Positions 9,701-59,607 of a stretch of DNA of 64,000 bases are shown piece by piece (the stretch's first letter is position 1; each line of letters begins with the position of its first letter). The DNA lies in assembly GCA_963740275.1 (NCBI GenBank), contig CAVUDT010000002.1:227418-291417 (forward strand). Direction: 5' to 3'. Source of the stretch: an uncultured Acidobacteriota bacterium (lineage in GTDB: Bacteria; Acidobacteriota; Vicinamibacteria; Vicinamibacterales; 2-12-FULL-66-21). A program made the position numbers and the translations under genes. The notes under the pieces were generated by a model. The model did no database searches and had not been told where the DNA came from. It saw nothing but the letters and a program-made list of their open reading frames with translations.

Positions 9701-11249
9701 CCCGGGACGGCGGCGGCGAGGCCGGCGGCGGCCGCTGCCGGTGCGCCGGCACGGATCAGACGACGGTCCGGCAAGGTCTGCGACGGATCGAGCGCGCGCA
9801 ACTGGTGGGGCTGATCGCTGAGCGCGGCGACGAGAAACGCGACCGTCTCCGGCTGGGCAAAGAAATTGACGTGGGTCACGTCATTGCGGTCGATGTTGCC
9901 GCCCGGACCGAAGCATCCGATCCGTGATCCGGGAATGAAGGCGCCGCCCGACGGATCGACCCGCCATCCCCCCGCCGACGGCACGACCAGGTCGTTGGCC
10001 GTGTTGAAGAACTGGTCGACGCCGGTGTCGAGCAGCCGCTGCAGCACGGTGGCATTCGGGCTGTAGTTCGCCGCCAGTGCGAAGTAGCGGTCGGGCGGTG
10101 GTCCCGGCGGGGCCTGGAGCTCACGAATGAGGTCACCGTCGCCGTCCATCGAGTGCAGGCCGGGCAGGTCGCCCGACGCATGGCGGGCGATCCACACCAG
10201 ACCGTTCGCCACGAACTCGGCGCCGGTGGTGAAGGGGTTGTCCGGAAACAGCTCGAGCAGGTTCGCCACCCAGCCGACGGTGTCCTCCCAGCGTTGCGGC
10301 GTCGCCAGCGGCGTCCCTTCGTTGGGGGACGCCACCAGCACGGCGCGGCCCAGGGCGAAACGCGAGGCGAGCGCGTCGAACGCCTGCTGCCGTTCGACGA
10401 GGTTCCTCAACACCAGCCCGCCCCGCGAGTGGGTGATGACATCGAAGGTGAACGTCTTCTTCGGCAGTCCTTCGAGCAGCATCCGCGCGTTCTCTTCCGG
10501 CGTCCGGCTGATCGAGAAATGGTCGAACGCGAAGATGCGATCGCCGTAGAGCGGCGCCACTGCTTCGAAGAAGTTCGACGCGGCCAGGGGACCGAATGCG
10601 CTGGCGGCGTTCGAGAAGGTGCCGTGAATCAGCAGCAGCGACCGCTCGGTTGACGACGGCTTGCCGGGCGGCGAGGATGCCGGCGGCGAGCGTCTCCTTG
10701 TTGACCCTGAGCCAGGCCTCCTGCAGCCCTCGCGACTTCCACACGCTGGTCTCGAACATCCGGGCCAGCTTCGGCAGCACGAAACCGGCGGCGCTGTCGA
10801 CCACGCCGCCGGCGACCTTGACCACGATCGACCTTGACCGCCTTGCTGACGAAGCCGCGGCTGGTCGCGAGATCGGCGCCACCCTCCGCCCGGCGAACCG
10901 GGGCGACGAACCGGACTTCGACCGGACCGCCGCGGGTCCGGCCGACGGCCGTCCGCGGTCCGTGGAAGGTCAGCGCACCCGACGGGTAGCGCAGCACCAG
11001 CACGGCGGCCTCTCCCGGAGGGAGCTCGGCGCTGATGTCGAGAGTGGCTGGGGTGGGGCCCACTCCATGGGTGCGCGTTTCGCGCGTGCCCGCTCCGCGG
11101 ACCGGCGGCTTCGGGATCGCGACGAACTCTTCGGTTCCAATCGCGTGGGTCAGGAATTCGGGTGGCAGCCCGGGCATCGCCGCTTCGCGGCCACGCGTCG
11201 TCGCAGTCCTCTGGAGATCCCATCCCGGCGAGTTCAGTTTGACGGCCAT
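6724..11249 (-). CDS. ~1,500-aa multidomain protein: unknown N-terminal domain, alpha/beta-hydrolase (esterase/lipase-like), middle domain, CHAT caspase-like protease domain, and a C-terminal TPR-like helical domain. The reading frame is disrupted twice near the 5' end.
   Basis: Hydrolase: LLLIHGTFSN...FDVITHSRGGLV (nucleophile-elbow variant). CHAT: RVVHVAGHGEP...ELVFVNCCHLA...VRCVVAAGWAVDD (His/Cys dyad). C-terminal 400 aa is alpha-helical repeat. Start ATG 11249 has a GAGG SD. Frame changes at ~10830 (16-bp tandem duplication gaccttgacc...) and ~10665 (1-nt indel in gccgcccggc). All three frames read as sensible peptide across the junctions. Confidence 0.7.
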
Positions 11250-11266: not shown

Positions 11267-13218
11267 TTGCGGAAGCCTATATCGTTTTGCGCAGCCCGTC
11301 AGCCGTCCACGCCCGGCACAATCCCGGCCGAACCTGACTATGATGAGCGCGTGCCCGCGCTGCTCATCGCCGCCCTGATCGGCCTCATCGTCCAGCAGCA
11401 GCCGACGTTCCGCAGCCGCGTCGAGCTGATTCGCCTCGACGTCGGGGTGGTCGACAAGGACGGCCGGCCCGTCCGCGATCTGCGGGCCGAAGACTTCGTG
11501 GTGCGGGTCGACGGCGCCGAGCGGCGCGTTTCCTTCGCGCACTTCTACGGAGCGGATGACGGGCCCCGCGCCGTGCAGGGCGATGCGCCGGTCGCGGTCG
11601 CCTCGAACGCGAGCGCCGTCCCCGGTCGCGTCGTCGTCCTGGTGGCCGATCTCGAGAGCGTCACCCAGGGTTACGAGAAGCCGATCTTCGATACCGCCGC
11701 AGGTCTCATCGACCGGCTGGCACCGTCGGACGCGGTCGGCCTGCTTGCCCTCAACGGGCGCAGCGTGGAGCTGACGCGGGACCATCGGAAGGTACGGGAA
11801 GCACTCGAGGGTCTGCGCGGATTTGCCTCGTCACCGACGTTTCGCTACCGGATGTCGGTCCGCGAGGCGGAAGCGTTCCGGAGCCGGCGACACCCGGATC
11901 ATCGGGGAAGTGGTCGAGCGAGAGTGCCGGGCCAGCGACACCATGTGCCCGCGGGAGCTGCGGGACCAGGCGATGCCGCTGCTGATCGAGGCCGACCGCC
12001 GGACCCAGGTGCTGGTGACCGCTCTCACTTCGCTGTTCGAGCGCCTCGAACCGATCGACGCGCCGAAGAGCGTCGTGCTGCTGTCAGGCGGCCTGCAGCG
12101 CCGGCAGGGCAGTGCCGGATGGTTCTCGGACCTGGAGCGGCGATCGCGGTCGGCCGGGATCTCGATGTCGATCGTCCAGATCGAGCAGGCCGAGAACGAC
12201 GCGTCCCGCCGCGGGCCCGGCGGAACGCCGCCGCGCGCCGATCTGACCGACGGCCTGTCCGCGATCGCCGGAGCGACAGACGCCGCGATGTATTACGGCA
12301 TCGCGTCGGGCGACGGGCGCGTTCGACCGTATCCGCAGCGAGATCGTCAATTCGTACCAGCTTGGCGTCGAGAGCCTGCCGTCGGACGCCGGCGATCGCA
12401 AGCACCGGTTGACGGTCGAGGTCAGGCGCAACGGCGTGACGGTGCGGGCGCGCAAGGAGATTGTCGTGTCGAGCACGCCGCGGGCCGCGTCCAACCCGGT
12501 CGACCTGCTGGCCCAACCGATCGATTTCACCGAGCTGCCGCTCACCGTCGCCACCTTCACCACGCGCGGCGAGGAGCCGTCCACCTTGAAGGTCATCGTG
12601 CTCGTGGAGGTCAGCGCCGGCGCTGCCGAAGCCGCCGGAGGCAGCTATGCCTTCTCAATCGCCGCGGCGCCTGCGAAGCCGGTGTTCGAGACGGCGGACC
12701 GGCTTGCCGCCGGTTCGCCGGCTTCCGCTGTGGCGGCGCAGATCCCGCCGGGCCGTTACCGGCTGCGCGCGGCCGCCGTTGATACCGCCGGCCGGCAGGG
12801 CTCGCTCGACATGCCGATCGTGGTTGGGCTGCGGCAGGTTGGCGCGCTGCAGTTCAGCGATCTCATTGTCGGACGGCTCGAGGGGGCGTTCACGCCGGCC
12901 ACGCGCGTACCGCCAGGGGTCCCGCTCGTGTCGGTCCTCGAGCTGTACAGCGCGGACCCGTCTCAGCTCGAAGGGCTCGACGTGTCGGTGGAGCTGCGAC
13001 GCGCCGGTGGGACCACGGAGCCGACGCTGGTGCCGGCGGAAGTGCGCAAGACGAGTCTCGACCGACGGCGGATCGCCAACGCGAACATTCCGGCCACGTC
13101 CCTCGCCTCCGGCACATGGCTCATCTCGGCGGTCGTGCGGCGAGGCAGCGAGGTCCTGGGTCAGGTAACCCGCGGCATTTCCGTCAGCCCCCCAGTTGGC
13201 GGGGATCAGCTCAAGTGA
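11267..13218 (+). CDS. VWA-domain protein of the acidobacterial TIGR03436-like family (~650 aa), frame-disrupted at ~11885 and ~12323
   Basis: N-terminus ...LIVQQQPTFRSRVELIRLDVGVVDKDGRPVRDLRAEDFVVRVDG parallels the two downstream paralogs (LRSGVELVSLNVSV...). Three consecutive ORF pieces (11267-, 11823-, 12409-13218) each read sensibly and join by 1-nt shifts. The start is uncertain (TTG 11267 or GTG 11351). Confidence 0.6.
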
Positions 13219-26697: not shown

Positions 26698-27642
26698 GTG
26701 TCATCCCGCCGCTTCTCGTTCATCGACCTTCTTCTGCTCCTGATGGCGATCATCTGGGGCACCAACTACTCCATCGTCAAGCGGGCGTTTCTCGAGATCG
26801 ACCCGCAGGTGTTCAACGCCGCGCGGATGGCCATGGCCTCGGTGGTCTTCCTGGTGATCATCGTGGCGGTGCGGGTCCGGGCCGCCCGGCGCGGCGCCGG
26901 TCAGGGGGCGAGCGTCGGTCTCGAGAGCATTTTCCTGACGCCCGAGCCGATCACGCCGCGCGACTGGCTCGCGCTGGCGGGTCTCGGGCTGGTCGGTCAT
27001 GCCGGCTATCAATACTTCTTCATCGGTGGTCTGGCACGGACCAGCGTGGCCAACAGCTCACTGATGCTGGCAGCGACTCCAGTGGTGATCGCGCTGATCA
27101 CCGCGGCGCTGGGGCAGGACCGCATCGGCCGGCTGCACTGGTTCGGCGCCGGCCTGTCGATCGCCGGCATCTACCTGGTCGTCGGGCACGGGGCGCCTGA
27201 AGGGGGCGCCAGCCTGGCGGGGGACGCGATGATGTTCGTGGCGGTCTGCTGCTGGGCGGTCTACACCCTCGGCGCGCGGCAGCTGATGCTGCGGCATTCC
27301 CCGGTCGGGGTCACCGGCCTGTCGATGGCGATCGGCACCGCCGTCTACGTGCCGCTGGTGATCGGCAAGGTCCGCGCAACCGACTGGAGCGGGCTGAGCA
27401 GCGGAACCTGGGTCTCGATCGTCTACTCGGCGTTGTTCGCGCTGTGCGTGGCCTACACCATCTGGTACATGGCGGTCCGGGAGATCGGCAGCGCGCGGAC
27501 GTCGGTCTACTCCAACCTGGTGCCGATCGTTGCGATGCTGACCGCGGTGATCTTCCTCGGCGAGGTCATGACTGTCTGGAGGGTCGCCGGTGCCGCTGCC
27601 GTCCTGCTGGGAGTGGGACTTACGAGGGTCCGGACGACCTGA
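26698..27642 (+). CDS. EamA/DMT-family transporter (10 TM)
   Basis: Two EamA-like halves. GTG start. Confidence 0.8.
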   Translation: MSSRRFSFIDLLLLLMAIIWGTNYSIVKRAFLEIDPQVFNAARMAMASVVFLVIIVAVRVRAARRGAGQGASVGLESIFLTPEPITPRDWLALAGLGLVGHAGYQYFFIGGLARTSVANSSLMLAATPVVIALITAALGQDRIGRLHWFGAGLSIAGIYLVVGHGAPEGGASLAGDAMMFVAVCCWAVYTLGARQLMLRHSPVGVTGLSMAIGTAVYVPLVIGKVRATDWSGLSSGTWVSIVYSALFALCVAYTIWYMAVREIGSARTSVYSNLVPIVAMLTAVIFLGEVMTVWRVAGAAAVLLGVGLTRVRTT

Positions 27643-27644
27643 AA

Positions 27645-27668
27645 GGTTCCAGGTTCCAGGTTCTGGGT
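27645..27668. repeat. heptamer tandem repeat, family 1 (GGTTCCA GGTTCCA GGTTCTG), 20 nt upstream of the desaturase start
   Basis: ggttccaggttccaggttctggg. Same family at 30588, 31183 (reverse) and 50292 (reverse). Confidence 0.55.
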
Positions 27669-27688
27669 GGGGCTGCCTGTTACAATCG

Positions 27689-28693
27689 ATGGAGCCTGTG
27701 AAAGACCACTATTATTCGCGCCACGCGGTCGCGCTGCGGGCCGAGCTGGGCGCGGCGATCACGCGCGAGCAGATGCGGCAGCTGCACCGGAAAAGCGCAG
27801 CCAGGCACCTGGTGATCGCAGCTCGTCAGTTTGCGATCCTGGCAGCCGGGACCTGGGGACTGATCCGGTTCGAGCATCCGCTCATCTGGATCCCGCTGGC
27901 GGTAATCCAGGGCTTCACGATCTTCAACTTCACCGTCCTGCTGCACGAGGTCGTGCACCACACGATCTTCGAGCGGCGCCATCCGGTGGCGGAACGCCTG
28001 CTGGGCTTCCTGTACGCGATCCCGAGCGGCATATCGGCAAGCCAGTTCACGCGGTGGCACCTGGACCATCACGCCGAGCTCGGGTCCGACGAAGACGATC
28101 CCAAGCGCGCCCACCTGTCGCCGAAGAAGAACGCGCGCTGGTACAAGCTGCTGTACTGCACCCCGGCGCTGTTTCCGATCTACTTCCGGGCCGCCCGCCT
28201 CGAAGCGGCGACCTACCCGGACGCGCTCCGCCGGAAGATCGCGTTCGAGCGCCAGCTGTCGATGGTCTTTCACTTCGGGGCGCTGGCGCTGCTCTGGTAT
28301 CTGTTCGGCTTCTACACCGCCGTGCGGGCCAGCATCGTGCCGGTGTTCTTCGTGTTCCCGATCGCCTTCACTCTCAACCGGCTGGGCCAGCACTACGACA
28401 TCGATCCGAGCGACCCGGCGAAGTGGGGCACGCTGATGCGCGGCAGCTGGTTCTGGGACTTCGCGTACCTGAACTCGAATTACCACCTCGAGCATCACTA
28501 TTTCCCGGGCGTGCCGTTCTATCGCCTGCCCGAGCTGCAGGTCGCGTTGCGGCCGTTCTACGAAAAGAAGCAGATGCGCTGGCGGACCTACGGCGAGCTC
28601 GTCTACGGATGGATCGTCGAGAACCACAAGCCCCACACCAACTGGGCCCAGTCAGACGTCGACCAGCACGCCAAAGACGCGGCGCGGGTCTAG
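27689..28693 (+). CDS. membrane fatty-acid desaturase (three His boxes)
   Basis: HEVVHH, HLDHH, HLEHH. Confidence 0.85.
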
Positions 28694-28835
28694 CAGCTTC
28701 CAGCTTCCAGCTGTCAGCTTCAATCTCAACTCCCAACTCCCAACTCCCAATCTCCAATTCGCGATCCCCAATCCGCAGTCCCCAATCCGCAGTCCCCAAT
28801 CCCCATCCCCCATTCCCGACAGCAATCCCCCACCC
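28694..28835. repeat. composite heptamer-periodic repeat, family 2: (CAGCTTC)n then (ACTCCCA / ATCCCCA / ATCCGCA)n, ~20 units, starting right after the desaturase stop
   Basis: cagcttccagcttccagctgtcagcttcaatctcaactcccaactcccaactcccaatctccaattcgcgatccccaatccgcagtccccaatccgcagtccccaatccccatccccc. Confidence 0.65.
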
Positions 28836-28858
28836 AGATTTACAGGTATTCTCAGCAG

Positions 28859-30587
28859 GTGCTCGCGAAAATTCTCGATTCCGGCCAGGACGAGCTGCTC
28901 AAGGAGGAGCGACGGGTCCTCACGCGTCTTCAGCTCGCGCTCGTGAAGTTCGACGCGGCGGCCGAGCACCGGGCGGCGCTCGAGCAATCCATCCACCAGC
29001 TGGATGAGCTCTTTCTGCTCGTGATCGTCGGTGAGTTCAACGCGGGCAAGAGCGCGTTCATCAACGCGCTGGTCGGGAGCCCGGTAGCGCAGGAAGGGGT
29101 GACGCCGACGACCGCCCAGATCAACGTGCTGCAGTACGGCGATCAGCCCGGACGGCAGGTCCGCGAAGACAACCTGCACATCATCACCGCCCCAGCCCCG
29201 ATCCTTCGCGACATCCACATCGTCGATACCCCGGGCACGAATGCGATCATCCGCGAGCACGAGGCGATCACCTCGGAGTTCGTGCCCCGGTCGGATCTCG
29301 TGCTGTTCGTGACCTCCGCCGACCGTCCGTTCACCGAGACCGAGCGGGCCTTTCTCGAGCAGATCCGCGGCTGGGGGAAGAAGGTCGTCATCGTCATCAA
29401 CAAGATCGACATCCTGGGCGGGGCCGGGGAGGTGGCCGAGGTCCGCACCTTCGTCGCCGACAACGCCCGCGCGCTGCTCGGATTCAGTCCGGAGGTCTTT
29501 CCGGTCAGCGCCCGGCTGGCGCTGCGGGCGAAGCAGGGGGACCCGGCATCCTGGGCGGCCAGCGGCTTCGAGGATCTCGAGCGATATATCGCGGCTACGC
29601 TCGACGCTCCGGGGCGGGTCCACCTCAAGCTGCTCAACCCGCTCGGTGTCGGCGCCGCGATCAGCGAGCGGCATGGCACGATCGTCCGCGAGCGCCTCGG
29701 CCTCCTGAAAGAGGACTTCACGACGCTCGAAGGGGTCGACCAGCAGCTGTCGGTCTACCAGGAGGACCTGACGCGGGACTTCGAGTTCCGCATGGCCGAT
29801 ATCGACAAGATCCTGCTCGAGATGGAGCGGCGCGGGCAGGACTATTTCGACGAGACCATCCGCATCGGCCGCGTGATGGACCTGCTGAACCGCAGCCGGA
29901 TCCAGCAGGGCTTCGAGCAGCAGGTCGTCGCCGACACGCCGCAGCAGATCGAGCGGAAGGTCGGGGAGCTGGTCGACTGGCTGGTGGCCGCGGATCTCCG
30001 CCAGTGGCAGGCGGTCACCACGCATCTCGCCGAGCGCCGGCGGCAGTATCAGAACCGGATCGTCGGCGAAGACTCCGGTCAGTTTCACTACGACCGCACC
30101 CGCATGATCGACGCCGTCAGCCGCGAGGCGCAGCGGGTGGTCGAGTCGTACGACAAGAAGCGCGAGGCCCAGCATGCTGGCCGACAACGCCCGGAACGCC
30201 GTCGCCGCGGCCGCGGCCGCCGGCGCGACCGCGCTCGGCCTCGGCGCCGTCATCACGTTCGCCGCCTCCACGGTCACCGCCGACTTCACCGGGATCGCGC
30301 TGGCCTCGCTGGTCGCCGCCCTGGGGTTCTTCATCCTGCCGGCCAAGCGCCAGAAGGCGAAGAACGAGATGCGCGAGAAGATCGCGGACGTGCGGAAGCG
30401 GCTGTCGGAGGCGCTGCGGAAGCAGTTTTCGACCGAGATCCAGCGCAGCGGCGACCGCATTCGAGAGAGCATCGCCCCATACAGCCGGTTCATCCGCGCC
30501 GAGGGGAACAAGCTGAAGGAAGTGGATGCGGAGCTGACCGAGATCAGCGCCGCGCTCGCCAGCCTCCGCGCCCGGATCGACTCTTGA
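28859..30587 (+). CDS. bacterial dynamin-like GTPase (BDLP/DynA-type) with a C-terminal membrane paddle; 1-nt frame shift near 30172
   Basis: G1 [17 protein letters not shown]3 DTPG, G4 INKID. C-terminal hydrophobic [33 protein letters not shown] plus coiled coil. Junction ...KKREAQ|[10 protein letters not shown]. Confidence 0.7.
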
Positions 30588-30610
30588 GGTTCCAGGTTCA
30601 GGTTCTAGGG
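30588..30610. repeat. heptamer tandem repeat, family 1, right after the dynamin stop
   Basis: ggttccaggttcaggttctaggg. Confidence 0.5.
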
Positions 30611-30882
30611 CAGTGCCGGGTGGTGACTTTCTACAAGAGGCCAGGAGTTCAAGAGGCCGTTTTTGAAAGAGTTTTCCTGATCTTCTGAGCTCCTGTTGAA
30701 GGATACCGAAGTCGCTGAACCCGGAACCGAGTGGCCTGTCGCGGCTGATTCAGTAGTGGCAGAAACAGAAGCACCGCTGAGCGCGCTGAGGGCGCAGAGA
30801 AGAACCGCCAGAAGAATCCTCTGCGCCGCTCTGCGGCCTTGCGGTGAGGGCTTTGTCGAGGGACTGATTCATCGAGGACGAG
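30605..30882 (-). pseudogene. decayed paralog of the small secreted protein (start codon out of frame after 3 single-nt indels)
   Basis: The signal-peptide frame ...GRRAAQRILLAVLLCALSALSGASVSA... has no start codon. The ATG-containing frame terminates after 40 aa. Confidence 0.35.
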
Positions 30883-31158
30883 CTACTGGCCCGACCGGAA
30901 CCAGGGACGTCCCGGGTGGTGGAGCGACAGAGGCCAGGAGTTCAAGAGGTCGTTTTTGAAAGAGTTTCCTGACTGCGATCTCCTGTTGAGGGCTGCGAAG
31001 TCTGAACCCGGAACCGAGTGGCCTGTCGCGGCTGATTCAGTAGTGGCAGAAACAGAAGCACCGCTGAGCGCGCCGAGGGCGCAGAGAAGAACCGCCAGAA
31101 GAATCCTCTGCGCCGCTCTGCGGCCTGCGGTGAGGTTTTGTCGAGGGTACTGATTCAT
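30883..31158 (-). CDS. small secreted protein, 91 aa, with a signal peptide
   Basis: MNQYPRQNLTAGRRAAQRILLAVLLCALGALSGASVSA|TTESAATGHS... The antisense + strand ORFs 30696-30959/30956-31153 lack such features. Confidence 0.5.
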   Translation of the reverse strand: MNQYPRQNLTAGRRAAQRILLAVLLCALGALSGASVSATTESAATGHSVPGSDFAALNRRSQSGNSFKNDLLNSWPLSLHHPGRPWFRSGQ

Positions 31159-31182
31159 CGAGGACGAGCCACTGGACCCGAA

Positions 31183-31207
31183 GAACCCGGAACCCGGAAC
31201 CTGGAAG
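31183..31207. repeat. heptamer tandem repeat, family 1 (reverse orientation), between flotillin and the small secreted-protein gene
   Basis: gaacccggaacccggaacctggaag. Confidence 0.5.
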
Positions 31208-31210
31208 CGA

Positions 31211-32791
31211 TCAGGATTGGGGCGGAACGGTGGCGGCTGAAACTGCGGGAGGGGCGCCGGTCGCGACGGCGGCCTGGTTGACCCCGAGCTGCTGCAGGAC
31301 GGTCGGCAGGTTGAGCCCGAGCGCCTCCAGCTGCTGGAGCAGGTTGAACACGAGCGCCGGGCTCGTCTGCGCCAGGCGTCCGAGGCTGGTGCTGCCGTTC
31401 TCGCCATTCCCGTGCCCCTGGTCGATCACGACGAGCTTGTCGATGTTGCCCAGGGGGGCAGCGATCGCGCCGAAGACGCCGGTCGAGGCTTCGATGATCG
31501 CCGGCAGCTTCTCGAGGATGGTCTGCAGCCGGGCGGCGTCGTTGAATTCCTTCCACGCCTCGGCCTTGCGCAGGATCGCGGCCGCTTCCGCGACACCCTG
31601 GGCCTCGATCGCCTTGGCCTGGGCGAGACCGATGGCCTCGATCCGCGACGCTTCCGCGCGCCCTTCCGCTTCGACCGCGGCGGCCCGGCCGGTGCCTTCC
31701 TTCTTCAGCTTTTCCTGTTCCGCTTCCGCCATCGCGATCATCGCCGAGCGCCGGCCCTCGGCCTCGAGGATCGCCGACTGCTTCGCCGCCTCGGCGCGAA
31801 CGACCGCGGCCTGGCGATCCGCTTCCGCCGGCTTGATCACCGTGGCATCGAGTTCCTTCTGCCGGCGGAGGACCTCCTGCTCCTGGACCGAGATCATCTC
31901 CTGCGTGCGGGTCTTCTCGACGCGGACTTCCTCGGCGACGACCCCCTGCCGCGCGGTGGCCTCCGAGAGCGGTCCGGCCTGTTCCGCACGGGCTTTCTGG
32001 GTCTCGATCTCCGCCTGGTACTGGGCCTGCCGGATCATGAAGTCCCTGGACGACTGCGCGATCTCGGCCTCGGCCTGGAACTTCGCCTTCTCGCCTTCCT
32101 GCAGCGCCTGCGAGGATTTGATCTTGGCATCGCGGTGCGCCTCGGCCTCGCCGATCGTCGCGTCCCGCTTGACCTCGGCGGTCCGCCGCTTGCCGAGCGC
32201 GTCGAGGTAGCCCTCTTCGTCACTGATTTCCTGGATCGTCAGCACGTCGACGCCGATCCCCATCTTCTCGAGATCCTGCGCCGCTTCAGTGGTGAGCTTC
32301 TGCGCGAAGCTCTGACGGTCGCTGTTGACCTCCTCGACCGTCAGCGTGCCCAGGATCGACCGCAGGTGTCCCTCGAGCGTCTGGAAGATGACTCTCTGGA
32401 CCTGGTCGTGGGTCATGCCGAGAAACCGCTCGGCCGCGGCCTGCAGCGAGGTGTCGTCGCCGCGGATCTTGACGTTGGCCACCGCCTTCACCGAAACCGG
32501 CACACCCTTCAATGTGTACGCCCGCTTGATCTCGAGCGGGATGGTCATCACGTTGAGGTGGAGGTACTCGACCTTTTCGAGCAGCGGGATCCGCAGCGCG
32601 GCGCCGCCGCGAACCATCCGGTAGCCGACGACCCGGCCGTCGGGCAGCTTCCGCTTCCGTCCGCTCAGCACCGCCACGGCGTTCGGCGAAACCTTGATGT
32701 AGTTCCGGCTGAACACATAACCGGCGGCAAAGAAGGACAGGACGATGGCGAGAACGCCGAGGATGACCCCGATCGTGGTGTTGTCCGGCAT
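31211..32791 (-). CDS. flotillin (SPFH/band-7 family, FloT/YqiK-like)
   Basis: N-terminal TM, SPFH domain, long Ala/Glu-rich coiled-coil (AEAEIAQSSRD...EAEGRAEASRIEAIGLAQAKAIEAQ). Confidence 0.9.
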   Translation of the reverse strand: MPDNTTIGVILGVLAIVLSFFAAGYVFSRNYIKVSPNAVAVLSGRKRKLPDGRVVGYRMVRGGAALRIPLLEKVEYLHLNVMTIPLEIKRAYTLKGVPVSVKAVANVKIRGDDTSLQAAAERFLGMTHDQVQRVIFQTLEGHLRSILGTLTVEEVNSDRQSFAQKLTTEAAQDLEKMGIGVDVLTIQEISDEEGYLDALGKRRTAEVKRDATIGEAEAHRDAKIKSSQALQEGEKAKFQAEAEIAQSSRDFMIRQAQYQAEIETQKARAEQAGPLSEATARQGVVAEEVRVEKTRTQEMISVQEQEVLRRQKELDATVIKPAEADRQAAVVRAEAAKQSAILEAEGRRSAMIAMAEAEQEKLKKEGTGRAAAVEAEGRAEASRIEAIGLAQAKAIEAQGVAEAAAILRKAEAWKEFNDAARLQTILEKLPAIIEASTGVFGAIAAPLGNIDKLVVIDQGHGNGENGSTSLGRLAQTSPALVFNLLQQLEALGLNLPTVLQQLGVNQAAVATGAPPAVSAATVPPQS

Positions 32792-35265: not shown

Positions 35266-35330
35266 CCCATGCCCCATCCCCCATTCCCCATCCCCGATTC
35301 CCCGACTCCCCATCCCCCCGACCCCGATTG
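35266..35330. repeat. heptamer tandem repeat, family 2 (CCCCATC/CCCCATT/CCCGATT...), in the divergent promoter region
   Basis: cccatgccccatcccccattccccatccccgattccccgactccccatccccccgaccccgattg. Confidence 0.6.
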
Positions 35331-44090: not shown

Positions 44091-46949
44091 ATGCGCATTC
44101 GGCAGCAGCTTCTGTTCGCATTCACCGCCGTGGCGCTCGCCTGCAGTGCCGGCGTGGTCGGCGCCCGGCAGCAGGCCGTGCCGGCGGCGCCCGTCACCTC
44201 GACTGCCGCAACCGCGGCGCTCGACCAGCCGGTGCCGCTCGACCCGGCGATCACCGCCGGCCGGTTCGAGAACGGTCTTCGTTACTTCATTCGCAAGACC
44301 CGGCGTCCGGAACAGCGTGCCGAACTGAGGCTGGTCGTCGATGTCGGCTCGATCGTCGAAGAAGACGACCAGCGCGGGCTGGCGCACTTCGTCGAGCACA
44401 TGGCCTTCAACGGCACGAAGAACTTTCCCAAGCAGGAGACGGTGACCTTTCTCGAATCGCTGGGCATGCGGTTCGGCCCGAGCATCAATGCGTCCACCAG
44501 CTTCGACGAGACCGTCTACATGCTGCAGGTGCCGACGGAAAAGCCCGAGGTCCTGGACCGGGCCTTCCTGATCCTGGAGGACTGGGCGCACGGGGTGACG
44601 TTCGACCCGGCCGAGATCGACAAGGAGCGCGGCGTGATCCGGGAAGAGTGGCGCATCCGGCGCGGCGCCGGCGCCCGCATGCAGGACAAGCAGCTGCCGG
44701 TCATGCTGAAGGGCTCCCGCTACGCCGACCGCATCCCCATCGGCACGATGGCGGTGATCGACAACTTCAAGCACGAGCGGCTGACCCAGTTCTACCGGGA
44801 CTGGTACCGGCCGGATCTCATGACCGTCGTGGCGGTCGGGGACTTCGATCCACCCGCGGTCGAGAAGATGATCAAGGCCCACTTCGAGCCGATCCCGGCG
44901 GCAAAGACGCCCAGACCGCGTCCGAGCTATCCGGTGGCCGATCATCCGGGCACGCTCTACGCTATCGCCACCGACGCCGAGGCGCAGTCCGCCACGATCA
45001 ACGTCCAGAGCAAGATGCCGCTGCGCGATCCGCGCTCGGTCGGCGCCCAGCGCGGAGACATCGTCGAACGTCTCTTCAGCAGCATGCTCGGCGCTCGCTT
45101 CGCCGAGCTGGCGCAGAGGCCGGATGCGCCGTTTATCGCCGCCGGCGCCGGGCGCGGCCTTTTCGTCCGGACGAAGTCGTTGTCTACCCTGAGCGCGGTC
45201 GCCAAGGGGAACGCCATCGACAAGACGCTGGAGGTGCTGTTCACGGAAACAGAACGGGTGGCGCGGTTCGGGTTCACGCCGGGTGAGCTGGAACGCACGA
45301 AGTCGAACCTGCTGAACAGCTTCGAACGAGCGGTGAACGAGAGGGAAAATACCCTGGCTGCGTCGCTGGCCAACGAGCTGGTGCGGCACGTCACCGCCCG
45401 CGAACCGGTGCCGGGGATCGTGTATGAGACCGCGCTGTATCGGCGCTTTCTGCCGGAGATCACCCTGACGGAGGTGAACGCGCTCGCCCGCGACTGGGCT
45501 CCCGACCGCAGCCGGGTCATCACCGTCAGCGCCCCTGAGAAACCGGGGATTGCGGTCCCCGACGAGAAGGCGTTGGCGGCGGTGATCGCGTCGATTCCCG
45601 GCCGGGAGATCACCGCCTACGTCGATACCGTCAATTCCACGCCGCTGCTCGAGACGCTTCCCCCACCGGGCGCGGTCGTCAGCACCGACACGAAACCGGC
45701 TTTCGGCATCACCGAATGGAAGCTGGCGAACGGCGTCAAGGTGGTGCTCAAGCCGACCGACTTCAGGGCCGACGAGATCCTGTTCCGCGCGATCAGCTAC
45801 GGCGGTTCCTCGCAGGCCTCCGACGCCGACTTCGTGCCGGCCAGCAGCGCCGCGATGGTCATGGGCGCCGGCGGCATCGGCCAGTTCAGCCTGGTCGACG
45901 TCCGCAAGAAGCTGACGGGCAAGTCGGCCGGGGTCACGGCGTTCATCACCGACTACGAGGAGGGGCTGACCGGTAATTCGTCGAGGAAGGACCTGGAAAC
46001 GATGTTCCAGCTGCTTCACCTGCGCTTCACCCAGCCGCGCGCGGACCCCAATGCGTTCCGGATCATGCAGGTGCAGATGAAATCCCAGCTGCCGCTGCAG
46101 CGCGGCAACCCGGCATTTCTCTTCGCCGAGGCCCTGACCGCGGCCCTGCGCGGGAACCACCTGCGGTCGAGACTCGGCACCATGGAGCAGGTCGAGCAGA
46201 TGAACCTCGAGAAGTCGCTGGCGTTCTACAAGGACCGCTTTGGCGACGCCGGCGACTTCACCTTCGTGTTCGTCGGCAACTTCACCCTCGACGAGCTGAA
46301 GCCGCTGGTCGAGCGATATATCGGGTCGCTGCCGGCTACCGGCCGCAAGGAGACGTGGAAGGACACCGGCCAGCGCTACGCCCGCGGGGTGATCGAGAAG
46401 CGGGTGGAGAAGGGGCTGGAGCCGAAGAGCCAGGCGGCGATCGTCTTCACCGGTGACTTCAAGTACGTCCAGGAACAGCGGGTGGCGATCACCGCGCTCA
46501 ACGAGGTGCTCCAGGCGCGGCTCCACGAGACGCTGCGCGAGGATCTCGGCGGCACCTACGGGGTCACCTCGTCGGTGAACTACCTCCGCATTCCGGTGCC
46601 GGAGTACACGATCACCGTCAGTTTCAGCTGTGCCCCGGAACGCACCGAGGAGCTCGTCAAGGCGGTCTTCCAGCAGGTGGAGCGGTTGAAGGCCGAGGGG
46701 CCGGCGGAGACGCAGGTCACCGACGCCCGGGAAAAGCTGCTGCGCGACTACGAGACCAATCGGAAGCAGAACGGCTACTGGGTGACGCAGCTGGCAGGAC
46801 GATACCAGTCAGGGGAGCCGGTCGATTCGCTGTTCGGGATGTTGGAGCACTACCGGCAGATCACGCCGGCGATGATCCGCGATGCCGCCAGGCTGTACCT
46901 GAACCCCGCCAACCATGTGACGGTGACGCTGTTCCCGGGGATCAAATGA
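44091..46949 (+). CDS. secreted two-domain M16-family zinc metallopeptidase (insulinase/pitrilysin-like)
   Basis: Signal MRIRQQLLFAFTAVALACSAGVVGA. HxxEH box GLAHFVEHMAFNG. Second inactive M16 half. GGAGG SD before ATG 44091. Confidence 0.85.
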   Translation: MRIRQQLLFAFTAVALACSAGVVGARQQAVPAAPVTSTAATAALDQPVPLDPAITAGRFENGLRYFIRKTRRPEQRAELRLVVDVGSIVEEDDQRGLAHFVEHMAFNGTKNFPKQETVTFLESLGMRFGPSINASTSFDETVYMLQVPTEKPEVLDRAFLILEDWAHGVTFDPAEIDKERGVIREEWRIRRGAGARMQDKQLPVMLKGSRYADRIPIGTMAVIDNFKHERLTQFYRDWYRPDLMTVVAVGDFDPPAVEKMIKAHFEPIPAAKTPRPRPSYPVADHPGTLYAIATDAEAQSATINVQSKMPLRDPRSVGAQRGDIVERLFSSMLGARFAELAQRPDAPFIAAGAGRGLFVRTKSLSTLSAVAKGNAIDKTLEVLFTETERVARFGFTPGELERTKSNLLNSFERAVNERENTLAASLANELVRHVTAREPVPGIVYETALYRRFLPEITLTEVNALARDWAPDRSRVITVSAPEKPGIAVPDEKALAAVIASIPGREITAYVDTVNSTPLLETLPPPGAVVSTDTKPAFGITEWKLANGVKVVLKPTDFRADEILFRAISYGGSSQASDADFVPASSAAMVMGAGGIGQFSLVDVRKKLTGKSAGVTAFITDYEEGLTGNSSRKDLETMFQLLHLRFTQPRADPNAFRIMQVQMKSQLPLQRGNPAFLFAEALTAALRGNHLRSRLGTMEQVEQMNLEKSLAFYKDRFGDAGDFTFVFVGNFTLDELKPLVERYIGSLPATGRKETWKDTGQRYARGVIEKRVEKGLEPKSQAAIVFTGDFKYVQEQRVAITALNEVLQARLHETLREDLGGTYGVTSSVNYLRIPVPEYTITVSFSCAPERTEELVKAVFQQVERLKAEGPAETQVTDAREKLLRDYETNRKQNGYWVTQLAGRYQSGEPVDSLFGMLEHYRQITPAMIRDAARLYLNPANHVTVTLFPGIK

Positions 46950-47097
46950 TTGCGGATTGGGGATTGCGGATTGTTGACTGACGGATTGTAGATTGGGGAT
47001 TGTGGATTGATGGTCGAAGCGCTTGCAATCAACACTCGACAATCCCAATCCGCGATCCCTAATCCGTCGATCAGCAATCCGCGATCCCCAATCCGCA
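46949..47097. repeat. ~150-bp imperfect palindrome built from family-2 heptamers (GATTGCG/GATTGGG arm, centre AAGCGCTT, then CCCAATC/CCGCAATC arm) between convergent genes
   Basis: gattgcggattggggattgcggattg...gattggggattgtggattg | tcgaagcgcttgcaatc | caatcccaatccgcgatccctaatccg...caatccgcgatccccaatccgc. Confidence 0.7.
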
Positions 47098-48806: not shown

Positions 48807-50285
48807 CTAATAGAGATTTCCTGATCGCTTGCCGCCGGTGTAGTCGACGTAGACGACCTTCAGTTCGGTATAGAAGTCGATCGCCACGCTGCCCATCTCG
48901 CGGAGCCCGACGCCGGTCGCCTTCATGCCGCCGAAGGGGATGTGGGCCTCGCCGCCGACGGTCGGCGAGTTCACGTGGATGATTCCGGCCTCGAGCTCGT
49001 CGACGAAGTGGAACATCGAGGCAACATCGGTGGTGTAGATCGATGCCGACAGACCAAACCTGACCTCGTTGGCGATGCGCAGGGCGGTCTTCGCGTCTGC
49101 GGCACGGATGACCGAAAGGACCGGCCCGAAGATCTCTTCCTGCGCGATCCGCATGCCGGGATCGACGTGGTCGAAGATGGCCGGCGCCACGAAGTAGCCG
49201 CGGTCGCGTCCGCCGTCGCCGAGTCGCTCGCCGCCGCGGACCAGTTGTGCCCCCTCGCTCCTGCCGATGCCGACGTACTCGAGCACCGTTTCCAGCTGCT
49301 TGTCGTCCACCGACGGGCCGACGTTCGTCTTCGGGTCCATGCCGTTGCCGGTGACCAGCGAGGCCGCGCGCGCGTGCAGGCGCTCGACGAATTCGCTGGC
49401 GATCGAATCCGCGACCACCGCCCGGCTGGTGGCGGTGCAGCGCTGGCCGGTCGATCCGAACGCTCCCTGGATCGTGCTCTCGACCGCCAGCTCGAGATCC
49501 GCGTCGGCCAGCACCACGATCGGGTTCTTGCCCCCCATCTCGCACTGGCACTTGATGCCGCGGGCCGCCGCGGCGGAGTAGAGGCCGACGCCGACGTCAT
49601 TCGAGCCGGTGAACGACACCGCCTGGATCGCCGGATGCTTCACGATCGTGTCGCCGACCTCGCGTCCGCCGCCGTAGATCAGGTTCAGCACGCCTGGCGG
49701 CAGGCCGCATTCCTCGAAGATCTCGACGATCAACGTCGCGGTGAGCGGCGTCAGGCTCGCCGGCTTGAACACGATCGTATTGCCCGAGACCAGCGCCGGA
49801 GCGATCTTCCAGATCGGGATCGCGATCGGGAAGTTCCAGGGCGTGATGATCGCCACCGGGCCAACCGGCTGCTTGAGGGTGTAGCAGAAGTTGCTCGGCA
49901 GCTCGGACGGTATCGTCTCGCCGGTGATCCGGCGCGCCTGCCCGGCGAAGAACTCGACGACGTTGATCGCGCGCTGGACCTCGCCGCGGGACTCGCCGAT
50001 CGTCTTGCCCTCTTCGCGGGTCAGGGCTTCCGCCAGCTCCTGCTTGCGGTCCTCCATCCGCCGCTGGACCTTGAACAGGATCTGGCCGCGGACCGGCGCC
50101 GGCGTCCGGCGCCAGCCCTCGAACGCGCGGGCGGCGGCCTCGCACGCCTGCGCCGCCTCGGCCGCGGTCGAAGCCGGGGCCTCGGCTACGACCTCGGAGG
50201 CGTCGGCCGGGTTGTAATCGGGGATCATCTTCCCGCTCTGCGAGTCGGTCCATTGACCGGCGATGAAATTCTTCAGTGTGCGCAT
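48807..50285 (-). CDS. NAD(P)-dependent aldehyde dehydrogenase (semialdehyde dehydrogenase candidate in the pyrimidine/beta-alanine pathway)
   Basis: ...ITPWNFP...FTGS...; catalytic GQRCTA; glutamate box ...EEIFGPV... Confidence 0.85.
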
Positions 50286-50291
50286 CGGGAA

Positions 50292-50354
50292 CCTGAACGA
50301 AACTCAGAACTCAGAACTCAGCATCCAGAACCTGGAACCCAGAACCTAGAACCT
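50292..50354. repeat. heptamer tandem repeat, family 1 (reverse orientation, ~8 units), in the divergent promoter region
   Basis: aactcagaactcagaactcagcatccagaacctggaacccagaacctagaacctga. Confidence 0.6.
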
Positions 50355-50421
50355 GATGAGCCCCCCTGTCAAGGCAGCGAGTGCTAAGATGCCGGCTTCA
50401 ACCCCGCAAGGAGATCATCAA

Positions 50422-52192: not shown

Positions 52193-52288
52193 GTTCAGCT
52201 CCTAGTCAAGCTGTCAGCTCTCAGCCCTCAGCTATCAGCAAATCCTCAAACACCAATCACCGATCCGCAGTCCCCATCCCCCATCCCC
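52193..52288. repeat. composite heptamer-periodic repeat, family 2 (CAGCTNN units then CACCAAT/CCGCAGT/CCCCATC units)
   Basis: cagttcagctcctagtcaagctgtcagctctcagccctcagctatcagcaaatcctcaaacaccaatcaccgatccgcagtccccatcccccatcccc. Confidence 0.6.
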
Positions 52289-57610: not shown

Positions 57611-57623
57611 GGTGAACGGCAGA

Positions 57624-57765
57624 CATTGCGGATCAGGGGATTGCGGATTGCCGATCGACGGATCTTTGATCGTGGATTGGAGCGCCGAATCAGCATCCCA
57701 ATCAAGAATCCAAAATCCCCAATCCGTCAATCAGCAGTCCGCAATCCACAATCCGCAATCCGCAA
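57624..57765. repeat. ~140-bp imperfect palindrome of family-2 heptamers between convergent ProX and typA genes
   Basis: cattgcggatcaggggattgcggattgcc...gtggattgg | agcgccgaatcagc | atcccaatcaagaatccaaaatccccaatccgtcaatc...caatccacaatccgcaatccgcaac. Confidence 0.7.

Positions 57766-59607
<1,842 letters not shown>

Follow-up and report, generated by a model that had tools for sequence, protein, structure and literature searches.

The four GGTTCYR arrays in the stretch of Acidobacteriota DNA analysed here (64,000 nucleotides, hereafter the window) are probably heptanucleotide simple-sequence repeats, part of a population of intergenic period-7 arrays that extends throughout the Vicinamibacterales. 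Arrays of this population occur across the lineage, are specific to the 7-nt period, lie between genes, turn over in unit sequence, show no strand bias and change length by whole units. They have the general features of heptanucleotide simple-sequence repeats and not those of contingency loci, operators, structured leaders or G-quadruplexes. The repeats are of a known kind, in a lineage for which our literature search (heptamer repeats in Acidobacteria/Acidobacteriota or Vicinamibacterales) found no report, and their remaining interest lies in the abutment of arrays on stop codons, in unit families that are specific to a genome, and in hairpins with one unit in both arms that is replaced by another from species to species. 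What had been a candidate regulatory or phase-variation system is replaced by a documented genome-wide feature of abundant, poorly studied soil bacteria. If arrays that start at stop codons and genome-specific unit families are also found in complete genomes, these two regularities would provide a handle on why repeats of seven bases in particular build up in many bacteria, and would show how hairpin terminators evolve quickly in GC-rich genomes.

Heptamer arrays of the window and their neighbours

Tandem Repeats Finder reports all four sites (Table 1), and their positions and sequences agree with those given in a preliminary description of this DNA. Sites 1 and 4 are direct arrays. The minus strand of site 4 reads GGTTCTA GGTTCTG GGTTCCA GGTTCTG GATGCTG AGTTCTG AGTTCTG AGTTTCG TTCAGGTTCCCG. 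Tracts are short, three of the four sites having just 3-4 units, and beyond the arrays the flanks of the four sites have only about 5 nt in common. The preliminary description had also regarded the arrays as non-random and the family as recurring within the genome, which is borne out by the two-unit pattern GGTTCNNGGTTC: it matches the window 10 times, against 0.09 ± 0.32 matches expected from dinucleotide-preserving shuffles. Two of these 10 matches, the copies inside the insert between sites 2 and 3, are additions to that description. When periods 4-12 were scored by one rule across the window, the GC content of which is 61-73%, eight arrays of period 7 and one of period 12 were found, and none of any other period. 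Head-to-tail 7-nt copies are thus present above chance.

Table 1. Heptamer arrays of the window, their flanking genes and associated elements
Feature	Positions	Strand	Remarks
Site 1	27645-27667	+	GGTTCCA GGTTCCA GGTTCTG GG; 3.3 units, direct array
Site 2 (left arm)	30588-30610	+	GGTTCCA GGTTCA GGTTCTA GGG
Site 3 (right arm)	31183-31207	-	plus strand GAACCCG GAACCCG GAACCTG GAAG; minus strand of GGTTC type
Site 4	50292-50355	-	direct array, about 9 units
Insert	30611-31182	.	tandem duplication of a segment of about 287 nt (copies roughly 90% identical); 572 nt in total
Two-unit copy GGTTCCGGGTTC	30717-30728	-	inside insert copy 1
Two-unit copy GGTTCCGGGTTC	31004-31015	-	inside insert copy 2
EamA transporter	26698-27642	+	Pfam
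EamA stop codon	27640-27642	+	TGA; 2 nt before the site 1 array
-10-like box TACAAT	27681-27686	+	preceded by TGT (extended -10 form); 11 nt before GTG 27698
Fatty-acid desaturase	27689-28693		Pfam
Dynamin-like GTPase	from 28859		Pfam; stop TGA 30585-30587 once the frameshift is allowed for
Flotillin	31211-32791	-	Pfam; stop 31211-31213
Aldehyde dehydrogenase (ALDH)	48807-50285	-	Pfam; ATG 50285
-10-like box TAAGAT	50385-50390	+	putative, for the DHO-dehydrogenase-like gene
DHO-dehydrogenase-like gene	start probably ATG 50422	+	GGAG Shine-Dalgarno sequence

Three of the four sites abut stop codons, and site 4 alone sits between two starts. Site 1 follows the EamA stop at a distance of 2 nt and ends 21 nt short of ATG 27689, in a spacer of 46 nt that is mostly array, and is without a nearby inverted partner. 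Site 2 is flush with the dynamin stop, and site 3, 24 nt upstream of a minus-strand ATG at 31158, is separated from the flotillin stop by 3 nt. Site 4 takes up roughly half of the divergent spacer (136 nt) between ALDH and the DHO-dehydrogenase-like gene and runs up to the ALDH ATG. No tRNAs were detected in the window.

The placement of site 2 depends on how the dynamin-like gene is read. Relative to the intact 608-aa orthologue of the closest relative (locus L001), this gene carries a 1-nt insertion near 30175 (CAGCATGCTGG compared with CAGCA-GCTTG). As a result of the frameshift, the N-terminal ORF continues as an out-of-frame Arg-rich sequence to 30688, and a separate C-terminal ORF runs from ATG 30174 to TGA 30587. 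The frameshift could be a sequencing error or the mark of a pseudogene, or the gene could be truly split. Given the frameshift, TGA 30585-30587 is the true stop, and the earlier statement that site 2 directly follows the dynamin gene holds.

The nearest relatives of the desaturase, with 71-87% amino-acid identity, all come from metagenome-assembled genomes of Vicinamibacterales or Acidobacteriota, and the tail of the EamA gene is recognisable upstream of the desaturase in many of the relatives listed. The longest inverted match within 27000-32000 pairs 27638-27668 with 31185-31215 (31 nt, 84% complementary), that is, sites 1 and 3. It spans the desaturase-dynamin block and runs 5 nt past the arrays into CCTGA/TCAGG, including both stops. 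We considered this match as a cassette boundary and rejected it; we take it as similarity of the arrays plus a CCTGA common to the two stop codons.

Period-7 arrays as a lineage-wide class

The survey covered 20-kb neighbourhoods of Vicinamibacterales relatives, as distinct from whole genomes, amounting to 1.4-1.8 Mb (loci L001-L160). Genes were called with a crude GC3-based predictor, which makes distances to start codons noisy and leaves stop positions unaffected. Among primitive tandem arrays in 81 of these sequences (1.41 Mb), 112 had period 7 and 43 had period 14; the other periods from 5 to 15 contributed 1-29 arrays each, so that period 7 is over-represented relative to its neighbours. 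The arrays are mainly intergenic: 181 of 215 (about 84%) lie outside predicted genes and another 18 at gene edges, in DNA of which at least 78% is coding. The GC content of the arrays is 57.5%, as compared to a background of 65%. Arrays per kb are about equally frequent in convergent and co-directional spacers and less frequent in divergent ones, and about a third of all arrays (79/215) have an inverted partner within 300 nt. Between co-directional neighbours, the sense strand has more C than G in 50 arrays and more G than C in 52, and this lack of strand bias argues against a strand-specific role in RNA. For annotation, the arrays matter because they extend or truncate predicted gene ends.

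The units are extremely diverse across loci, and many unrelated heptamer families coexist at equivalent positions of one genome. One unit may recur at separate spacers of a genome: 16.6% of within-locus pairs have units at most 1 base apart, as opposed to 4.3% of pairs between loci, and identical units make up 7% and 0.7% of these pairs, respectively. Locus L025 is another case in which neighbouring spacers of one genome have a common unit; here one unit occurs in opposite orientations (TCGCGGT at 9797-9822, CGAACCG at 11018-11050) on either side of the desaturase.

The window itself contains C-rich heptamer arrays at 28694-28817, 35266-35325 and 52272-52288 (CAACTCC, CCCAATC and CCCATCC). On their complement, these arrays have a run of at least 3 G every 7 nt, a G-quadruplex-capable pattern similar to that of the Xanthomonas and Nostoc repeats described below. 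The array at 28694-28817 follows the desaturase stop without a gap, and the units found there in relatives are different ones.

The spacer between EamA and the desaturase shows how units turn over. At the threshold used, 23 of 150 relatives carry a period-7 array in this spacer, and more have 14-nt variants. The unit varies by species and includes GCTGAAC, CCGGACC, CCCAAAG, GAGCCCT, GGTGCCN and, in either orientation, GAACCYN. Length change was followed by comparing loci whose desaturase genes are 94-100% identical. Most arrays compared in this way are identical between strains, and the differences found are of whole units: +7 nt for L137 against L138, where the desaturase gene is 100% identical, likewise +7 nt for L042 against L143, a net 14 nt between L003 and L081, and 21 nt more in L108 than in L014 and L104. 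Exact multiples of seven between near-identical strains are the behaviour of slippage-prone simple-sequence repeats. Unit-number polymorphism, which the preliminary description had proposed to look for, thus exists in related lineages. Scans of genomes and metagenomes for contigs of the same species as the window returned none, the best matches being 87% and 85% identical in amino acids, respectively, and look-ups of the exact desaturase and ALDH proteins gave no hits.

The position of arrays was assessed by comparing the real place of each with random placement inside its own spacer (1000 permutations, 1.8 Mb). Fifty of 142 arrays lie within 5 nt of a stop codon, against 17.7 ± 3.0 expected and a permutation maximum of 29. 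Within 5 nt of a predicted start there are 13, against 10.4 ± 2.9 expected, which is no enrichment. The 5'-UTR or promoter placement previously attributed to the arrays is therefore not the rule, and over 1.8 Mb the arrays are not enriched next to predicted starts. Abutment on stops is also found when the desaturase locus is left out (35/100 arrays, 13.4 ± 2.6 expected), and both kinds of array take part in it, 34 of the stop-abutting arrays being direct only and 16 inverted pairs.

Taken as simple-sequence repeats, the arrays would be created and resized by replication slippage and would persist in the least constrained DNA, typically from the stop codon on. Purely local slippage does not explain two of the above observations, however: the recurrence of a unit at separate spacers of one genome (the within- and between-locus frequencies given above), and the abutment on stops, which is about threefold over random within-spacer placement. 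An active process of copying or homogenising that spreads one unit family, whether by ectopic gene conversion, by template switching between arms or by an enzyme-mediated insertion that prefers sites after stops, would fit a unit sharing that is 4-10 times as frequent inside a genome as from one genome to another, the abutment on stops with or without hairpin formation, and hairpins in which both arms carry one unit that differs between species (see below). We nevertheless consider such a process unlikely, as neither homology in the flanks nor a target-site duplication nor a gene for an associated enzyme was seen, and as the sample on which unit sharing was measured consists of 20-kb neighbourhoods rather than whole genomes. 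There is a similarly small chance that the arrays stem from a directed process or functional system that seeds them after stops, with template switching keeping the unit family uniform and building fast-evolving terminator or insulator hairpins. Such a process would explain stop abutment, within-genome unit sharing and arms of the same unit that differ between species, where simple slippage does not. One might speculate that seeding takes place through R-loops or single-stranded DNA exposed where ribosomes leave the mRNA.

The reading as heptanucleotide simple-sequence repeats has precedent. In many prokaryotes, no other class of long simple-sequence repeat is as abundant as the heptanucleotide repeats, and polymerase slippage has been proposed as their origin (Mrázek, Guo and Shah 2007, as related in PMC4679880 and PMC4692102). 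As far as these two papers relate that study, the taxa highlighted in it were Burkholderia, Xanthomonas, cyanobacteria and actinobacteria. The arrays described here resemble the repeats so related in being tandem 7-nt copies, in the over-representation of period 7, in their intergenic location and, as seen in related lineages, in whole-unit length change; they differ from what is related there in belonging to Acidobacteriota, and the abutment on stops and the within-genome unit families are quantified here. The GGGAATC arrays of Xanthomonas and the GGGGAYT arrays of Nostoc are likewise intergenic, and some form inverted pairs able to make stem-loops (Rehm et al. 2015, PMC4692102). They are kept between the same genes, but their length and sequence differ from one close species to the next, and they lie nearer one flanking ORF than the other (PMC4692102). 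All of these traits recur here: an intergenic location, some inverted pairs, retained spacers with variable length and sequence, and proximity to one ORF. Unlike those G-rich, G-quadruplex-capable units, GGTTCYR has GG runs only and falls short of a run of 3 G per unit, which the CCCAATC and CCCATCC arrays of the window would provide. A further difference from Xanthomonas and Nostoc is the coexistence of many unrelated units in a single genome.

TAACTGA direct repeats occur upstream of starts in marine Beggiatoaceae (MacGregor 2015, PMC4679880). Together with the short tandemly repeated repetitive (STRR) heptamers of cyanobacteria they share with the present arrays their abundance and intergenic location; both come in 2-6 or more copies, frequently close to gene starts, and have no known function. 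In Beggiatoaceae, however, a single unit dominates, in one orientation and directly upstream of starts, whereas the arrays here are diverse, unbiased and associated with stops.

Promoters near sites 1 and 4 and possible roles in expression

A TACAAT box lies between the site 1 array and the desaturase. Boxes of the form TANNWT (TACAAT, TAAAAT, TAGAAT or TAAGAT) are found 9-14 nt before the conserved desaturase GTG in 123 of 150 relatives, and we infer from this conservation that TACAAT is a -10 element followed by a very short leader. No -35-like hexamer is recognisable at site 1, and a scan for the sigma-70 consensus made no promoter call at any of the four sites. The arrangement implies a putative desaturase promoter that would rely on the -10 box alone, and an mRNA whose leader is minimal or absent and which lacks a Shine-Dalgarno sequence. 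The true desaturase start may be GTG 27698 and not ATG 27689. The site 1 array stands upstream of the conserved box, over the -35 zone, and thus the putative promoter would not transcribe it.

At site 4, the array ends 29 nt upstream of the putative TAAGAT box of the DHO-dehydrogenase-like gene. The minus strand has a perfect TTGACA at 50372-50367, followed by an 18-nt spacer and by TAGGTT inside the array; if TTGACA/TAGGTT is a promoter, most of the array may be in the ALDH leader. Among the relatives, L109 has at least 135 nt of ACAAGGG/AAAAGGC units about 135 nt upstream of the -10 box of its desaturase.

A phase-variable contingency switch, in which adjacent genes would be switched on and off as units are gained or lost, would draw on the differences of ±7, 14 or 21 nt between near-identical strains in arrays of this class, and on the overlap of the site 1 array with the -35 zone of the putative promoter. 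Functional 7-bp promoter repeats are known from hmw1A and hmw2A of Haemophilus influenzae (PMC8262952), and TTTTGAT promoter repeats from ctxAB of Vibrio cholerae (bioRxiv 10.1101/2021.05.14.444153). As in those systems, where copy number can tune expression, tandem 7-bp units occur here in a promoter region. The hmw and ctxAB repeats, however, are found at single loci, as long or regulator-bound tracts next to virulence genes, in contrast to the window arrays, which are short tracts next to housekeeping genes and have neither a conserved unit nor a known regulator. The neighbours are of the housekeeping type (desaturase, ALDH, dynamin, flotillin), and the combination of surface or contingency genes with long tracts that characterises contingency loci does not occur. 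Convergent spacers are as dense in arrays as other spacers, starts are not enriched, most arrays compared between strains are identical, and the promoter shows no clear -35 element at which a change of spacing could act. A switch at these genes is decidedly unlikely. Rather, a slippage-prone population throughout the lineage, and the position of sites 2 and 3 as arms of a hairpin between convergent genes, argue against a dedicated regulatory switch.

The proposal that the heptads are operators, bound by a protein that jointly controls the desaturase, the dynamin-flotillin cluster and ALDH, takes as its basis the occurrence of one unit type at no fewer than four sites within 23 kb, which is far above chance, and the greater sharing of units within than between genomes. 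In addition, GAACC-type arrays occur at the desaturase spacer of four relatives (L021, L034, L073 and L153). Most relatives, however, have another unit or no array at the orthologous spacer; the arrays are found in both orientations with respect to the neighbouring gene, two of the sites are at convergent 3' ends, many unrelated heptamer families occupy equivalent positions of the genome, and no regulator gene was identified. Heptads bound by regulators of the ToxR or SARP type would be expected to be conserved in unit, orientation and position at orthologous promoters, and the present arrays are not. These differences between species, together with the use of both orientations and the absence of strand bias, make the repeat-binding regulator suggested in the preliminary description highly unlikely. 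If simple-sequence repeats at these sites affect expression, they would do so through changes of spacing or length and not through a dedicated repeat-binding factor.

Inverted arrays between convergent genes and predicted RNA structure

Sites 2 and 3 are complementary arms between the convergent stop codons of the dynamin and flotillin genes. When 30580-31215 was folded, 30588-30610 paired with 31183-31207 as the closing stem in both the minimum-energy and the centroid structure. Dynamin and flotillin genes are convergent in nine relatives, and in most of these the spacer is a hairpin with inverted tandem-repeat arms. The unit is common to both arms and differs between species, as illustrated by CAAACTG and CAGTTTG in the arms of L002 and L082. 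The spacer of L001, 147 nt long, forms a contiguous GGTTCC...GGAACC hairpin, with a folding energy of -88.4 kcal/mol (z = -7.0) on one strand and -90.7 kcal/mol (z = -7.7) on the other. In L005, nearly all of a 201-nt spacer (12867-13069) is a hairpin of GTGCGAC/GTCGCAC arrays, at -142 kcal/mol. Adjacent arms forming a local stem-loop are thus seen in L001 and not in the window, where the arms are 572 nt apart. We conclude that sites 2 and 3 probably once formed one contiguous terminator-like or 3'-stabilising hairpin, as in L001; the duplicated 572-nt insert now separates the arms. No U-tract follows the hairpin arms.

More generally, the inverted subset of the arrays would form long hairpins at gene 3' ends and, judging from this position, probably end or stabilise transcripts. 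Long hairpins at gene 3' ends are also formed by extragenic palindromes of the REP/BIME type and by the U-tract-less hairpin terminators of high-GC bacteria. Sites 2 and 3 and the other inverted arrays resemble both in forming long hairpins between convergent genes. They differ from REP/BIME elements in having arms of tandem heptamers and no conserved palindromic unit, and in the window also in the 572 nt between the arms.

Each copy of the insert contains a 2-unit GAACCCGGAACC and a small minus-strand ORF. No further copies of the insert were found in the 1.8 Mb. The small ORF, previously described as a gene for a small secreted protein, has a plausible signal-peptide-like start (MNQYPRQNLTAGRRAAQRILLAVLLCALGALSGASVSA...). 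Its GC3, however, is 0.65, as opposed to at least 0.78 among the genes predicted in the window; the other 160 loci contain no homologue, and the frame of the ORF is disrupted in insert copy 1. It is doubtful that this ORF is a gene.

It is very improbable indeed that 30588-31207 is a MITE-like element which inserted between dynamin and flotillin and has its terminal inverted repeats in sites 2 and 3. Inverted arms of about 23 nt do bound a 620-nt segment that relatives lack, but in the closest relative, L001, the GGTTCC/GGAACC arms are contiguous and without an insert, no second copy of the insert occurs in the 1.8 Mb, and the interior is a simple tandem duplication.

A structured leader, also raised in the preliminary description, receives no support from RNA folding. 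The fold z-scores of the four regions range from -0.23 to +1.34, none better than shuffled sequence (site 1, -0.23; site 4, +0.28 and +1.16). Rfam gave no match over the whole window at the gathering threshold, nor over 30500-31300 at E <= 1. The units of the arrays are marginally biased towards unstructured RNA (mean rank 0.53, p = 0.018). Selection for unstructured RNA was rejected as an explanation, this marginal bias being all that speaks for it; CsrA-type GGA motifs were rejected as well, since GGA is antisense at sites 1 and 3 and other families are without GGA. That the arrays form a structured or protein-bound 5' UTR leader (through structure, a ribosome standby site, or Csp- or CsrA-type binding) is barely credible, in spite of that slight bias and of a site 4 array that reaches the ALDH ATG and would probably be in its leader, given the absence of both structure and Rfam matches, the lack of sense-strand bias, and a desaturase array that lies upstream of the conserved -10 box and so outside the transcript of that promoter.

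Two further pairs of inverted heptamer arrays, both of GATTGCG/CGCAATC type, occur in the window at 46945-47094 (-88.4 kcal/mol, z = -10.4) and at 57620-57768 (-65.2 kcal/mol, z = -7.0). Each is flush with both stops of a convergent gene pair and folds into a hairpin of great length, and they are probably bidirectional terminator-like structures built of tandem repeats.
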